The notes under the pieces were generated by a model. It did no database searches. It saw only the letters and a list, made by a program, of their open reading frames with translations, and was not told the DNA's origin. This document shows positions 47,535 to 50,829 of a stretch of DNA of 60,112 nucleotides, in pieces (position 1 is the first letter of the stretch; each line of letters starts with the position of its first letter). The position numbers and the translations under genes are program-made. The stretch lies in IMG/VR virus record IMGVR_UViG_3300045988_096302; one strand, 5' to 3'. This stretch comes from a virus.

Positions 47535-49298
47535 ATGAGCAAAGAATTTTTAGATCTTCTAAGAAGAAATTTTACAGAAGATGACCTGATTCCTTTTGCT
47601 GTAAATAAAACATTTTACAATCAAAAGCATCCTGAGAATGTGTTTGCTAGAGATTTTGAGCAATTTCACTATAAAATTAAACTTATTCCTTCACAGGTGA
47701 AAGCCTTAAGAGATAAGTATGATCTTTATATCTGCTTTACTCCTTGTGAGGGAGGAGATCGTAAAAAAGTTAAGGCAAAAGATAGCTTTATTATCGCACA
47801 AGACATTGATGGAGTATCTATTCCTGAAGATCTTCCCCCTAGCTATTATTGGGAAACAAGCCCAGGAAAGTTCCAAGGAGTTTGGGTTTTAGATAATAAA
47901 GTAACTCCACAAGAGCAAGAAATCATTTGTAAAAAACTGATAAAGAAATATGACTTTGATCCTTGTGGTTCTGACATTGTGCATTTATACCGTATTCCAG
48001 GAACATGTAATCACAAGTATGCTAGTACTTTCAAAGTCTCAGGTATGCAAGGCAAAGGTACAGTGTACAGGAAGCGTGAAATTATCAAGCATCTAAAAGA
48101 TGTAGATATCACAGAAAGCACAATAGTAAATAATGAGCCTATAGAATATAAAGAATATGATCTAGAAGAGCTACTTCTTGAATATTCTGTGAAGCAAGAG
48201 TTTAATAACACTTTAGGATCAGACAGGTCAGAATGGGCTTGGAACATTGAAAGTAAAATGTTCATCAATGGAGCAAGCAAGGAAGAAGTGAAATTTGTGC
48301 TTCTGAACGCTCCTGACTCAATGGCTAAGTTCACAGAAAAGAACGTAGATTCTGAGGTAAATAGAGTTTATGCTAAAGTTGAGGCTGAAGCTAAAGAAAT
48401 TGAAGAAGAGCTTGAAGATAGAGCCTCATTGAAGCGTTTAAGTAAAGCTCCTAAGGGAATTGTAAGGCTTGAAGATACTGAGTTAAGAGGTAAGAAACCA
48501 CAGAAAGGTAAAGTCAATATCAAGCGTGTTGATGAGATTGAACCTTTTGATCCTACGGACTTTTGGTTAATTGAAGATCTGTGGGAGAATAACTCAGTTG
48601 GTGTTATTGGAGCACCTTCTAAGTCCTTCAAGTCAACTCTTACTCTTAACCTTGCCTGTGCTGTAGCAACAGGAAAACCATTTGATGGAAGGGAAGTGAA
48701 ACAAGGTGCTGTATTAATTATTCAAGGTGAGAATAACCTATCAATGGAACAGCACAAGATATATTCAATCACTGGAGAAACAGAATTGCCTATCTACTTT
48801 GTAGATGACAATATCACTATGGATCATATTTACAAGCTCAAGGATAGCATCCTAGAGTTGGGGGTTAAACTCCTAATTATTGATCCTATGTATCTACTTT
48901 TTGGTTCAGGAGATATTAACAAGCATAGGGATATTGTCCTAAGACTTGAAATGTTATCAACACTGAGCAAGAAGACTAACTGCTCAATCATGTTAGTACA
49001 CCACTCAAGGAAACTTGAAAGGGGTGCTAAGATTCAAACCTCAGATATGTATGGTTCTGCATTTATTGAGGGATGGTATGAGTCAATGATACTCTTACAG
49101 CGACAATCTAACAATTCATCAAGGATGGTTACTTACTTTAGAAACCATAAATCAGGAGATGTTTATGATCTTGTGGTTGATGATAACATGGGCTGTAAAG
49201 CTTATAAGAGAAATGATGACTCAGGATATGAGCCTGACAAAATGGAACTAACAAGACTCACTAAAAAAGAAAAGGAAATTTTTGAAAATGAAAACTAA
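47535..49298 (+). CDS. bifunctional primase-polymerase / RepA-like (AAA_25-type) helicase
   Basis: N-terminal AEP-like motifs AQDIDG, SPGKFQGVW and LYRIPGTCNHK. C-terminal P-loop GAPSKSFKST and Walker B LLIIDPMY. Confidence 0.7.
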   Translation: MSKEFLDLLRRNFTEDDLIPFAVNKTFYNQKHPENVFARDFEQFHYKIKLIPSQVKALRDKYDLYICFTPCEGGDRKKVKAKDSFIIAQDIDGVSIPEDLPPSYYWETSPGKFQGVWVLDNKVTPQEQEIICKKLIKKYDFDPCGSDIVHLYRIPGTCNHKYASTFKVSGMQGKGTVYRKREIIKHLKDVDITESTIVNNEPIEYKEYDLEELLLEYSVKQEFNNTLGSDRSEWAWNIESKMFINGASKEEVKFVLLNAPDSMAKFTEKNVDSEVNRVYAKVEAEAKEIEEELEDRASLKRLSKAPKGIVRLEDTELRGKKPQKGKVNIKRVDEIEPFDPTDFWLIEDLWENNSVGVIGAPSKSFKSTLTLNLACAVATGKPFDGREVKQGAVLIIQGENNLSMEQHKIYSITGETELPIYFVDDNITMDHIYKLKDSILELGVKLLIIDPMYLLFGSGDINKHRDIVLRLEMLSTLSKKTNCSIMLVHHSRKLERGAKIQTSDMYGSAFIEGWYESMILLQRQSNNSSRMVTYFRNHKSGDVYDLVVDDNMGCKAYKRNDDSGYEPDKMELTRLTKKEKEIFENEN

Positions 49299-50829
49299 CA
49301 AAGTAACAATTTTAACAGTAGCTACACTTGCTACACTTGCACTTGCTAATAATGCTAAAGCTGATGCTCAGGATAGCCCTGTAAGCTCACAGGAAGCTCC
49401 TACAGCTCTTGTAACCAATCCAGAGGGTAATAATACCACTGAGGCTAAACAGCCCACAGAGATCACTAAAGAGGGCACAGAGATCACTGTAAAAAATCCA
49501 GAGGTTGTGATTGACCAATCTAAAGGTGAGGGAAAGTATCAAGAATTTACTGTAGAGTATAAAAATATCAAATTTGCTGATGATATGCCTATTAATGCAG
49601 GTGATAAAGTAACAATGACTTTCCCTGAAGAGCTTAACTTTCAAACTAAGTATGAATTTGATGTTAAAAACCCTGAAGATGCTGTAGTAGGTAAGGCTTC
49701 TACTAATCCTGAAGATCGTACAGTGACTACTGTGTTTAATGACTACTTTTCATCTCATCCACTTAATAAACAAATGTCACTAAAACTTGATGCAAAGTGG
49801 ACTGACAAGGTAGAGTCAGGTAAACCTGTAAAGGTCAATTTTAACGGTACAGTAGTGACAGCTCAAATTGGAAAAGAACAAGTAATTGGTAAGGATGAGT
49901 TGATCGCTAAGTGGGGAAGTCAAGATAAAGATGATCCAACAGTGATTAATTGGACGGCTCGTATCAACTATGCAAAACGTGTGTTGAATTATGTGACAAT
50001 CATTGATGAAATGTCAGAAAACCAAAAGCTAGTTGATAACTACTTTGAGATCAAGAACATTGAAAGTCTAGATCCTTGGATTGACAAGGGTGATGCTATG
50101 GATCTAGTAAAATCTATTAGTAAGTCAGATCATGGTTTTGAAATCAAGATGGATCGCTTGGATCACATGCTATACATCAATTATAAGACTAAACTTGTCA
50201 ATGCTGTTAAGGATAGTGTTAATCCAACTAACAAAATTGAGTTGAAAGCAGAAAATGATGGATCTACCTCATATAGCTATGTACAGCTTGTTGGAGGAAA
50301 AGGTGATGCTTCAGGTGAAAATAAACCTACACCTACCTTTGAAATTCCTAATGAAGCACCTAAGTATGAAAAACCTGAATGGCATGGAGGTATTCCAGGT
50401 ATTCCTGAAGAACGTGTGAAACCTGAATACACTGAACCTATTGGAACTATACCTAATGATGCACCTATCTTGGATAAGCCTGAGATCAACATTGAAGATA
50501 TTCCAATGATGCCTCCAGCTCCTATTTTGGATAAACCTGAGTATCCAATTCCAGCAGAACCAGAGAAACCTAACACACCTCCTTCAGTTCCTGAAATTCC
50601 TGTAACTCCTAAAGAAGAACCAAAAGTACCTTCAGAAAGTCCTAAGGTAGAACCTAAGAAGGAAGAGGTTAAGGTAGAAAACAAAGGTGAAGTTTCACAT
50701 GAAACACCTGTAGAAACTTATAAAGCACCTATGTTACCACAAACAGGATCACAAGCTGGTGTAGCGCTTTCTGTGTTAGGTTTAACAGTATTAAGCCTCA
50801 CAGTAGCATTTAAGAAAAAAGAAAACTAA
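49288..50829 (+). CDS. secreted LPXTG cell-wall-anchored adhesin-like protein (MSCRAMM/Cna-like)
   Basis: Signal peptide MKTNKVTILTVATLATLALANNAKA/DA. Pro-rich repeats (APILDKPE twice). LPQTG (50734..50748) is followed by a hydrophobic helix and KKKEN. The central INWTARINYAKRVLNYVTIID resembles a collagen-binding-type fold. Confidence 0.75.
   Translation: MKTNKVTILTVATLATLALANNAKADAQDSPVSSQEAPTALVTNPEGNNTTEAKQPTEITKEGTEITVKNPEVVIDQSKGEGKYQEFTVEYKNIKFADDMPINAGDKVTMTFPEELNFQTKYEFDVKNPEDAVVGKASTNPEDRTVTTVFNDYFSSHPLNKQMSLKLDAKWTDKVESGKPVKVNFNGTVVTAQIGKEQVIGKDELIAKWGSQDKDDPTVINWTARINYAKRVLNYVTIIDEMSENQKLVDNYFEIKNIESLDPWIDKGDAMDLVKSISKSDHGFEIKMDRLDHMLYINYKTKLVNAVKDSVNPTNKIELKAENDGSTSYSYVQLVGGKGDASGENKPTPTFEIPNEAPKYEKPEWHGGIPGIPEERVKPEYTEPIGTIPNDAPILDKPEINIEDIPMMPPAPILDKPEYPIPAEPEKPNTPPSVPEIPVTPKEEPKVPSESPKVEPKKEEVKVENKGEVSHETPVETYKAPMLPQTGSQAGVALSVLGLTVLSLTVAFKKKEN

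Follow-up and report, generated by a model that had tools for sequence, protein, structure and literature searches.

The 60,112-nt viral sequence IMGVR_UViG_3300045988_096302 (the whole stretch analysed, hereafter the window) carries on its + strand, at 49288..50829, an adhesin-like gene of 513 codons plus stop with an ATG start, situated directly 3' of the primase/helicase gene of a phage. In structure the encoded protein belongs to the MSCRAMM/Cna class and is unexceptional there, and its homologues are already annotated in GenBank; what appears to be undescribed is that many streptococcal phages, some of them apparently non-integrating, have a mobile, selected, sortase-dependent adhesin cassette in their early lytic operon. 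We found no description of the adhesin family in searches of the full-text literature, SVep1 (PMC10536254) and Yahara 2021 (PMC7782811) included, nor any functional study of the homologues from the Streptococcus phages YMC-2011, SA-TP2 and Javan. We propose that the gene encodes an early-expressed, sortase-anchored adhesin of the MSCRAMM/Cna class which alters the surface of the infected cell and acts in adhesion or aggregation, a proposal that we regard as evenly poised between right and wrong.

The adhesin family is abundant. Both protein searches returned at least 8000 candidates at E <= 1e-10, with thousands of metagenomic homologues, and the A-domain by itself constitutes a small family, with 289 of 1.84 billion representatives matching at E <= 1e-3. 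Contigs of 58-62 kb hold over 100 clusters that are 80-98% identical and make up the clade of the window (the 60-kb clade), which is abundant, uncultured and derived from human-associated metagenomes. A second large set, at ~50-70% identity, consists of ~40-kb contigs and prophages, and prophage homologues are extant in the genomes of Streptococcus parasanguinis, S. gingivalis, S. salivarius and S. mitis.

The product of the gene is 100% identical to protein P0001, which bears the JGI label 'LPXTG-motif cell wall-anchored protein'. Its first 26 residues (MKTNKVTILTVATLATLALANNAKA|DA; 49288..49365, + strand as all features of the gene below) fit a Sec-type signal peptide, as predicted from the n/h/c sequence rule and from near-invariance in the 60-kb clade, where the ratio of non-synonymous to synonymous substitution rates (dN/dS) of this segment is 0.017. 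The n-region MKTNK is followed by the h-region VTILTVATLATLALA, with 15 hydrophobic residues, and by NNAKA|DA, which contains an A-x-A cleavage site; there is neither a lipobox Cys nor a YSIRK motif.

The A-region (aa ~52-333, 49441..50286) is composed of two tandem beta-sandwich IgG-like domains of the MSCRAMM/Cna type. The first immunoglobulin (Ig)-like domain matches Pfam Big_8 (aa 94-174, 49567..49809; E 2e-12, 47.6 bits, cut-off 22.9) and the second matches Pfam Collagen_bind, PF05737 (aa 204-321, 49897..50250; E 1e-11, 45.6 bits, cut-off 27.5). In an AlphaFold2 model built on a 38-sequence alignment, residues 52-333 have predicted local distance difference test (pLDDT) values mostly between 70 and 93, and residues 1-51 and 335-513 are disordered. 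Foldseek comparison of the model with the PDB gave more than 40 MSCRAMM structures with probability 1.0 over ~300-330 aligned columns (E 5e-13 to 1e-10), among them SdrD, SdrC, Bbp, SdrE, ClfA/B, FnBPA, SdrG and UafA, as well as RspB, Cnm, Cna and Ace of the Cna family. A library of viral structures yielded a single strong match, a 'clumping factor' of a metagenomic siphovirus.

The A-region is followed by a segment (aa 333-376, 50284..50415; QLVGGKGDASGENKP…GGIPGIPEER) that consists of invariant alignment columns: the pattern QLVGG(K/R)GDASGENKP…GGIPGIPE.R is kept even between alleles that are only 49% identical overall. This segment, which is disordered in the AlphaFold2 model, may be a latch or a linker. 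At a conserved position within it (aa 338-340, nt 50299-50307) the alleles of the 60-kb clade have KGD, and the temperate alleles and one cellular relative have RGD. RGD and KGD are the classical integrin-recognition tripeptides; their occurrence here may be a coincidence, and the position is predicted to be exposed.

A disordered Pro-rich stalk that would span the wall occupies residues 345-478 (50320..50721; pLDDT <40). Residues 345-480 are 23% Pro, APILDKPE occurs twice (aa 392 and 411; nt 50461-50484 and 50518-50541), and the length of the stalk differs between alleles, the proteins being 462-551 aa long. The C-terminus is a cell-wall sorting signal (50734..50829) in which LPQTG (aa 483) is followed by the 21-residue hydrophobic stretch SQAGVALSVLGLTVLSLTVAF, by KKKEN and by the stop codon; it passes the NCBIfam model TIGR01167 LPXTG_anchor with 21.4 bits (cut-off 15.9). 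We noticed no sortase gene in the window, therefore a host enzyme would be needed for anchoring, and it is a reasonable inference from the sorting motif that host sortase would attach the product during the lytic programme.

A preliminary description of this DNA, made from its letters, had credited the protein with a Sec signal peptide ending in …NNAKA|DA, a central region resembling Cna/MSCRAMM folds, a Pro-rich wall-spanning region with APILDKPE repeats and an LPQTG-hydrophobic-KKKEN sorting signal at 50734..50829, and all four features hold. The three Pfam domains that it suggested fared differently. Collagen_bind is clearly above its cut-off and Gram_pos_anchor (PF00746) is borderline, with 18.8 bits slightly below a cut-off of 20, whereas Cna_B has no match at E <= 1; a stalk of Cna_B-type repeats is absent and residues 335-513 are disordered instead.

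The adhesin gene is tightly joined to its upstream neighbour. The primase/helicase gene (47535..49298, + strand, 587 aa) was identified by PHROGs 906, 239, 10514 and 19, and by Pfam RepB_primase and AAA_25 on the identical gene of an independent assembly. Its stop codon TAA (49296-49298) lies within the adhesin gene, and its last codons (…GAA AAT GAA AAC TAA) harbour the adhesin start codon, so that the two genes overlap by 11 nt; both the overlap and the identity of the primase-helicase are as first described. A Shine-Dalgarno-like AAGGA is found at 49272-49276, and an alternative in-frame TTG start at 49282, where the homologous codon of a sister subclade is ATG, would give a protein of 515 aa. 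The cassette shows no promoter or terminator of its own, no convincing promoter being found upstream of it in the window. Co-transcription with the primase gene would follow from this lack and from the location of the start codon inside the last codons of the primase. The GC content of the gene (0.374) equals that of the genome (0.372; z = -0.04), that is, the deviant composition typical of morons is absent.

On the 3' side the gene is followed by a conserved hairpin, CAAGGGG-TGAAATT-CCCCTTG (50833..50853, + strand, ~-12 kcal/mol) and then ACTTTAAAATTTT, and by the next gene of the operon (50879..51391, + strand), which encodes a 170-aa DUF1642/phrog_121 protein with paralogues further downstream. 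The hairpin forms the right boundary of the accessory slot described below. It scored as terminator-like on the - strand only; a role as terminator or attenuator is possible, though the + strand fails the T-tract rule.

Comparison of related loci shows that the gene occupies an accessory slot. Using the primase, 54 related loci were collected, of which 52 were assessable and one was cut by a contig end. The adhesin gene lies directly 3' of the primase gene in 32/52 loci, is truncated in one (L115, in which ~135 adhesin codons are left, fused into the next gene) and is absent in 19, namely in L104, whose primase is 92% identical, and in all 18 loci of a subclade with 66-71% primase identity. 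The identity of the adhesin is uncoupled from that of the primase: L098 has a 97% identical primase and a 56% identical adhesin, while the corresponding values in L119 are 73% and 92%. The same A-domain allele groups are common to 60-kb phages and to several temperate backbones, and SA-TP2, a phage induced from S. salivarius, belongs to the allele group of the window.

The boundaries of the cassette can be read from L104. A 9-nt direct repeat, GAAAACTAA, flanks the gene, its left copy (49290..49298, + strand) spanning the adhesin start region and the primase stop and its right copy (50821..50829, + strand) being located at the adhesin stop. The adhesin open reading frame (ORF) starts with ATGAAAACTAA… and ends with …GAAAACTAA, and the primase gene of L104 ends with ATGAAAACTAA, after which the hairpin follows at once. 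Recombination between the 9-nt repeats reproduces exactly this adhesin-less junction. L104 was considered as an ancestral empty site and rejected as such, because it keeps the adhesin's own ATGAAAACTAA while the primases of the adhesin-free subclade end differently; the retention of ATGAAAACTAA as primase end implies a secondary deletion between the repeats. Regardless of the allele, almost every subclade-A locus has the hairpin after the adhesin stop, and in L104, where it has a compensated pair (G:C to U:A), it directly follows the primase stop; it therefore belongs to the backbone. With the hairpin being part of the backbone and its own boundaries falling at the ends of the ORF, the cassette is exactly ORF-sized and borrows the transcription signals of the backbone.

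Other cargo is found at the same site. In L099 an ORF for a ~165-aa DPPY-motif DNA methyltransferase (7760-8260) lies between the primase and adhesin genes, and tblastn coordinates reveal a similar primase-adhesin gap of ~500 nt in L107 and L119, which implies that the slot is a hot spot for accessory cargo. Among the traits of a moron, the gene thus displays presence/absence polymorphism at a fixed site and lacks both a promoter and terminator of its own and a deviant composition. Absence or pseudogenisation of the gene in otherwise identical relatives without a phenotype had been named in the preliminary description as a refutation of its reading. Such loss is partly seen, the gene being deleted from L104 and truncated in L115 among close relatives and missing from a whole subclade, and it means that the gene is dispensable for phage propagation; it argues for an accessory role and does not contradict surface display.

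Despite such losses the gene bears the marks of selection. The A-domains of 21 distinct alleles of the 60-kb clade give dN 0.049, dS 0.59 and dN/dS 0.083, and dN/dS over all 95 distinct alleles is 0.09. The same architecture was found in ~120 related loci, where all intact alleles keep the signal peptide and LPxTG. Judged by these substitution patterns, the adhesin gene is kept by selection inside the integrase-less clade, though single phages can lose it. That the gene is dispensable, under strong purifying selection and traded between backbones is very well supported and fits an ecological accessory function. These data also bear on the most sceptical explanation, in which the gene would be a non-functional passenger in decay, or its likeness to an adhesin an artefact of annotation. 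Its loss or truncation in some relatives is what such a passenger would show, but the strong purifying selection, the retention of export and anchoring signals across ~120 loci, the confident two-domain fold and the thousands of homologues effectively refute this explanation, which we consider extremely improbable.

The closest named homologues belong to temperate Streptococcus phages: Ssal_phage00024 of YMC-2011 (YP_006561239), gp23 of SA-TP2 (XPO97366), Javan311_0032 (QBX17065) and proteins of Javan371, Javan534, Javan535, Javan536 and Javan539. Their identity to the window protein is 52-71% over the matched 73-78% of the query in tblastn and 49-68% in full-length alignment. Similarly to the window protein they have a signal peptide, Big_8 and Collagen_bind domains, the LVGG(K/R)GDASGE…GGIPGIPE segment, a Pro-rich stalk and LPxTG, whereas the signal peptides and stalks differ in sequence and the YMC-2011, SA-TP2 and Javan phages are ~40 kb long and have integrases. 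Several of them have a gap of 200-350 nt 5' of the gene in place of the overlap with the preceding gene seen in the window. Databases list them under discordant names ('sialidase', 'WapA precursor', 'LPXTG cell wall anchor domain-containing protein').

The position of the gene is conserved in these phages. In all three records inspected (YMC-2011, SA-TP2 and Javan311) the adhesin gene is part of the early/replication operon, which runs rightward; two helicase genes flank it in Javan311, and in YMC-2011 and SA-TP2 it lies just 5' of Gam/Sak4 or replisome-organiser genes. In ~70 further loci it is located 6-10 kb from a leftward integrase gene, in at least three replication-module contexts and often only 2-20 nt away from its neighbours. 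The temperate homologues are not at the attachment site or at the lysis end. A homologue of 31% identity in the record of 'Campylobacter phage CJLB-5' (MW057932.1, 6923-8353; our locus L150), a record from poultry faeces, is likewise placed in the early/replication region. The Campylobacter host assignment of CJLB-5 is doubtful, given a gene order typical of Gram-positive temperate phages. Because homologues across phages sit likewise, the replication-module position is the norm of the family and not a peculiarity of the phage of the window. The placement had first been taken for a rare oddity; that view cannot be upheld, as YMC-2011, SA-TP2, Javan311 and dozens of ~40-kb contigs share the early-operon position and the gene is already annotated in temperate relatives.

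This distribution raises the question of lysogenic conversion. The gene could be a colonisation factor of temperate phages, expressed by prophages or in a carrier or pseudolysogenic state, the 60-kb clade holding a recently captured passenger or being not strictly virulent. Most homologues are indeed found in integrase-carrying ~40-kb phages and streptococcal prophages, the gap of 200-350 nt in phages of the YMC-2011 and SA-TP2 type could hold a promoter, phage-borne LPXTG colonisation factors such as SasX of S. aureus exist, and the gene is dispensable in the 60-kb clade. However, no promoter was detected in the upstream gap of YMC-2011, and in the Javan311 type the gene is wedged, with 14-21 nt, between two helicase genes. 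A recent capture is also at variance with the GC content of the gene, which matches that of the genome, and with its history in the 60-kb clade: a dS of ~0.6 combined with a dN/dS of 0.08 and the presence of the gene in 32/34 assessable members of two 60-kb subclades imply long maintenance by selection. Moreover, no integrase was found in the 60-kb genome, which is circular in two independent assemblies. Taken together, lysogenic-conversion cargo seems to us a rather improbable explanation.

The carrier itself is apparently a siphovirus-like phage of oral streptococci without an integrase, for which, on its gene content, a virulent lifestyle is reasonable but unproven. The first 55 nt of the window are identical to its last 55 nt, hence the window represents a circularised, complete assembly of a 60,057-bp genome. 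The exact adhesin protein is also encoded on an independent 60,176-bp 'k119' assembly, as would be expected of this circle with an overlap of 119 nt added. The - strand between 3.1 and 39.8 kb is taken up by the late genes (portal, terminase, tape measure, tail proteins and endolysin), and early/replication genes (Sak4, SSB, primase/helicase, PolA, exonuclease and dihydrofolate reductase, DHFR) occupy the + strand. Neither PHROGs nor Pfam detected an integrase or recombinase among the window ORFs of at least 180 aa, in agreement with the earlier remark that the phage has no lysogeny genes. A lone leftward ORF (41771-42094) was considered as a repressor gene and rejected, since it has no PHROG match and no evident helix-turn-helix. 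No close cultured phage was found: the terminase shares 26% identity with that of the virulent Lactococcus P087 group, and PolA shares 37% with those of Clostridium phages. All cellular genomes with a relative of the adhesin are Streptococcus, and among the species-representative genomes scanned the matches are ~60%-identical temperate alleles, never the 60-kb type.

We propose a sequence of events whose first three steps are well supported, though inferred. Firstly, the anatomy of the operon suggests that in the lytic programme the adhesin gene would share a transcript with the early/replication genes and would probably also be coupled to them in translation. Secondly, the motifs, together with what is known of sortase biology, point to Sec export by means of the signal peptide, after which host sortase A would cut LPQT|G and link the protein to lipid II and then to peptidoglycan. 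Thirdly, the Pro-rich stalk would span the wall and display the two-domain A-region, the fold of which is given by the model, and the A-region may bind a protein or peptide ligand by a mechanism of the dock-lock-latch or 'hug' type. The infected cell would thereby become stickier to host-derived surfaces (salivary pellicle or a matrix protein) or to neighbouring cells, and would be retained or clumped among dense susceptible streptococci at burst; temperate carriers would behave likewise on induction.

The preliminary description had named superinfection exclusion, aggregation or adhesion of infected cells and decoration of progeny as possible roles. A surface protein made from the start of infection could indeed also serve superinfection exclusion. 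As a receptor mask or decoy, the wall-anchored protein would shield the receptor or capture incoming tails and so block secondary adsorption in the latent period, and, displayed on wall fragments after lysis, it would spare the progeny from binding to debris, by the logic of T5 Llp and the streptococcal Ltp. The placement of the gene in the early operon of integrase-less as well as temperate phages would suit such a need. The deeply divergent allele groups (42-78% A-domain identity), which are swapped among backbones, recall arms-race loci, and the slot is shared with a DNA methyltransferase gene, another cargo of the counter-defence type. Surface-exposed exclusion proteins are established in Streptococcus phages, according to an excerpt of the work on Ltp (PMC3952083), and a host cell-wall protein, CwpV, can block phage infection in C. 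difficile, as stated in an excerpt of PMC4737114.

However, none of the PADLOC models of defence or exclusion matches the adhesin, and it has no lipobox. The exclusion proteins known from temperate phages of streptococci are encoded in the lysogeny module and are small lipoproteins or membrane proteins, neither of which applies to the adhesin. The traits of the Ltp/Llp type are in fact missing throughout, given that the protein has no Cys near the cleavage site, is 513 aa long and is encoded in the early/replication operon. MSCRAMM A-regions typically bind host proteins, and many streptococcal siphovirus receptors are wall polysaccharides that a single protein would mask poorly. Finally, purifying (dN/dS ~0.08) and not diversifying selection dominates within allele groups. 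Exclusion or receptor masking is, in our view, the main rival explanation, though an unlikely one. We favour adhesion or aggregation because all close structural and evolutionary relatives of the protein are host- or surface-binding adhesins and because selection within allele groups is conservative; this is a preference and not a demonstration.

Several points weigh against an adhesive function in lytic infection. The timing of expression is deduced solely from gene order, and the virulent lifestyle of the 60-kb phage is likewise deduced from absence of evidence. Two close alleles of the adhesin are found on scaffolds of 104.8 and 122.4 kb, on which all genes within 10 kb on either side of the adhesin gene are phage genes; one of these long scaffolds has about twice the unit length and is probably a concatemer. 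The identity of the protein to solved adhesins is only 10-16%, and a search of PDB sequences with the protein and with a 26-sequence profile returned nothing for the A-region, only the anchor matching SpyCEP, from which it follows that only Pfam and the fold reveal the kinship with solved adhesins. The ligands of MSCRAMM folds are highly diverse, so the fold does not specify 'adhesion'. The benefit of adhesion for a cell that lyses within an hour is conjectural, a direct precedent for the adhesion of a soon-lysing infected cell was not found in the full-text literature, and the gene has been lost in some relatives without obvious consequence.

Wall-anchored MSCRAMM adhesins are textbook colonisation and virulence factors, and phage-borne ones are seen as cargo of lysogenic conversion. 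If the protein is displayed during infection, a lytic virus would alter the adhesive or receptor landscape of a cell that has only minutes left to live. This would matter for the spread of phages in saliva and biofilms, for superinfection dynamics and for the flow of adhesin alleles between commensal and pathogenic streptococci. A bolder, tentative idea, which we think may well be wrong, is that oral streptococcal phages, even those without lysogeny, re-surface the doomed cell with the early-expressed MSCRAMM and make it adhere or co-aggregate, so that the burst occurs in a dense patch of susceptible cells. If so, the virus would be manipulating the 'behaviour' of its host to promote its own transmission, in a scheme in which A-domain alleles specify different targets and are traded between lineages. 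With the early-operon position being the norm of the family and the gene being already annotated, the placement is less singular than first supposed; on the other hand, cultured temperate carriers exist (YMC-2011 and SA-TP2), and the natural deletion variants define an exact knockout.

The genome of the window has further features of note outside the adhesin locus. The late arm starts with tRNA genes for Arg(TCT) (38966-39041) and Cys(GCA) (39086-39158), both on the - strand. Where the late and early arms diverge, the intergenic region contains a 45-nt AT-rich direct repeat (39911-39955 and 40016-40060; 82% identical, 105 nt apart), which could represent duplicated promoters or operators, or origin iterons. 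The first early gene (40138-41103, 321 aa) has no homologues in PHROGs or Pfam, and three terminator-like hairpins lie 3' of it, at 41110-41256.

In the late arm, the endolysin gene (10661-12919, - strand) is unusually long. Its 752-aa product has amidase/CHAP-type matches at aa 3-305 and a wall-binding match at aa 644-749, and for a segment in between (aa ~398-556) the PHROGs matched are those of ribonucleotide reductase and PhoH, which would fit an intein or another inserted element. Beyond the endolysin, the products of four - strand genes (9743-10618, 8451-9734, 7888-8442 and 3134-3979) share a Cys-rich N-terminal module (…WC..KNI…C…) and differ in their C-terminal domains; they look like interchangeable virion-associated receptor-binding proteins. 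The first of them, of 291 aa, matches Pfam BspA_v, the variable or lectin domain of antigen I/II adhesins, with E 1.3e-13. Neither a signal peptide nor LPXTG was found in these paralogous late genes. A 54-nt repeat family, D1, with seven copies encoding 'YDDTALKARI.ALE…', is distributed over three late genes (in 5385-7888 and 13139-14110, - strand), and a second family, D2, of 45 nt, occurs in the same genes; both probably represent fibre or coiled-coil modules through which tail-fibre paralogues recombine more readily.

The product of 1763-2653 (+ strand) has a weak match to the helical domain of 5-hydroxymethyldeoxyuridine (5-hmdU) DNA kinase (HMUDK_hel, E 3e-6), relatives have a DHFR gene at the position of window 58583-59065 (+ strand), and a dUTPase-like peptide, PEGYEAHIAPRSSLFQN, spans the circular junction (60058-60112/1-55). 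Together these hint at thymidine hypermodification or remodelling of the nucleotide pool. The PolA gene, which encodes 640 aa in the window, is split (384 + 248 aa) or enlarged to 959 aa in close relatives (L147, 15629-17814; L149, 15003-17882), suggesting mobile insertions such as an intein or a homing endonuclease.

Comparison with known systems places the phage adhesin among the cellular MSCRAMMs by fold and apart from them by sequence, stalk and genetic setting. Its nearest relatives of the chromosome type, on contigs of up to 85-211 kb that are presumably chromosomal, are P0245 and P0246 (1007-1051 aa) and P0391 and P0254 (453-501 aa), with 39-48% identity across the A-region; they are typical surface proteins of streptococci. 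All four have LPxTG anchors similarly to the phage protein, and P0245, P0246 and P0254 also have LVGGRG… after the A-domain. The two long relatives differ from the phage versions by a YSIRK signal and by four to five 'streptococcal pilin isopeptide linkage' repeats in place of the Pro-rich stalk. NCBIfam recognises only the stalk and anchor of these proteins, and a cluster look-up gave no names for them.

Members of the Cna family, such as Cna of S. aureus (PDB codes: 2f68, 2f6a), Cnm of S. mutans (8jl8), Ace of E. faecalis (2z1p) and RspB of E. rhusiopathiae (3v10), have, like the phage protein, a Collagen_bind domain, two tandem Ig-like domains and LPXTG. They share only 14-16% identity with it, have Cna_B repeats where it has a Pro-rich stalk, and are chromosome-encoded, while the phage gene lies in an early operon. 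The best structural matches (E 5e-13 to 5e-11) are the staphylococcal Clf-Sdr MSCRAMMs SdrD (10ps, 8vdk, 4je0), SdrC (6lxs), Bbp (5cf3), SdrE, ClfA/B, SdrG (1r17) and FnBPA, which have a two-domain A-region of the DEv-IgG type, a signal peptide and an LPXTG anchor, as has the phage protein. A-regions of the SdrD/ClfA type belong to dock-lock-latch adhesins. With these proteins the identity is 10-16%, the phage protein has neither SD repeats nor B domains, and the relative orientation of the domains in its model differs (root-mean-square deviation ~8 Å, TM score 0.3-0.45).

Phage-borne surface proteins form the other group of comparable systems. T5 Llp is made early by a virulent phage, and SasX of S. 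aureus is LPXTG-anchored and encoded by a prophage moron, and is not an MSCRAMM. Ltp of the S. thermophilus phage TP-J34 is exported and retained at the cell surface, as an excerpt of PMC3952083 states. The phage adhesin resembles all three in being phage-borne, exported and retained at the cell surface. Ltp and Llp are, however, small lipoproteins with a lipobox, which the adhesin does not have, and none of the three shows sequence similarity to it or is, as it is, a two-domain MSCRAMM encoded in a replication operon.

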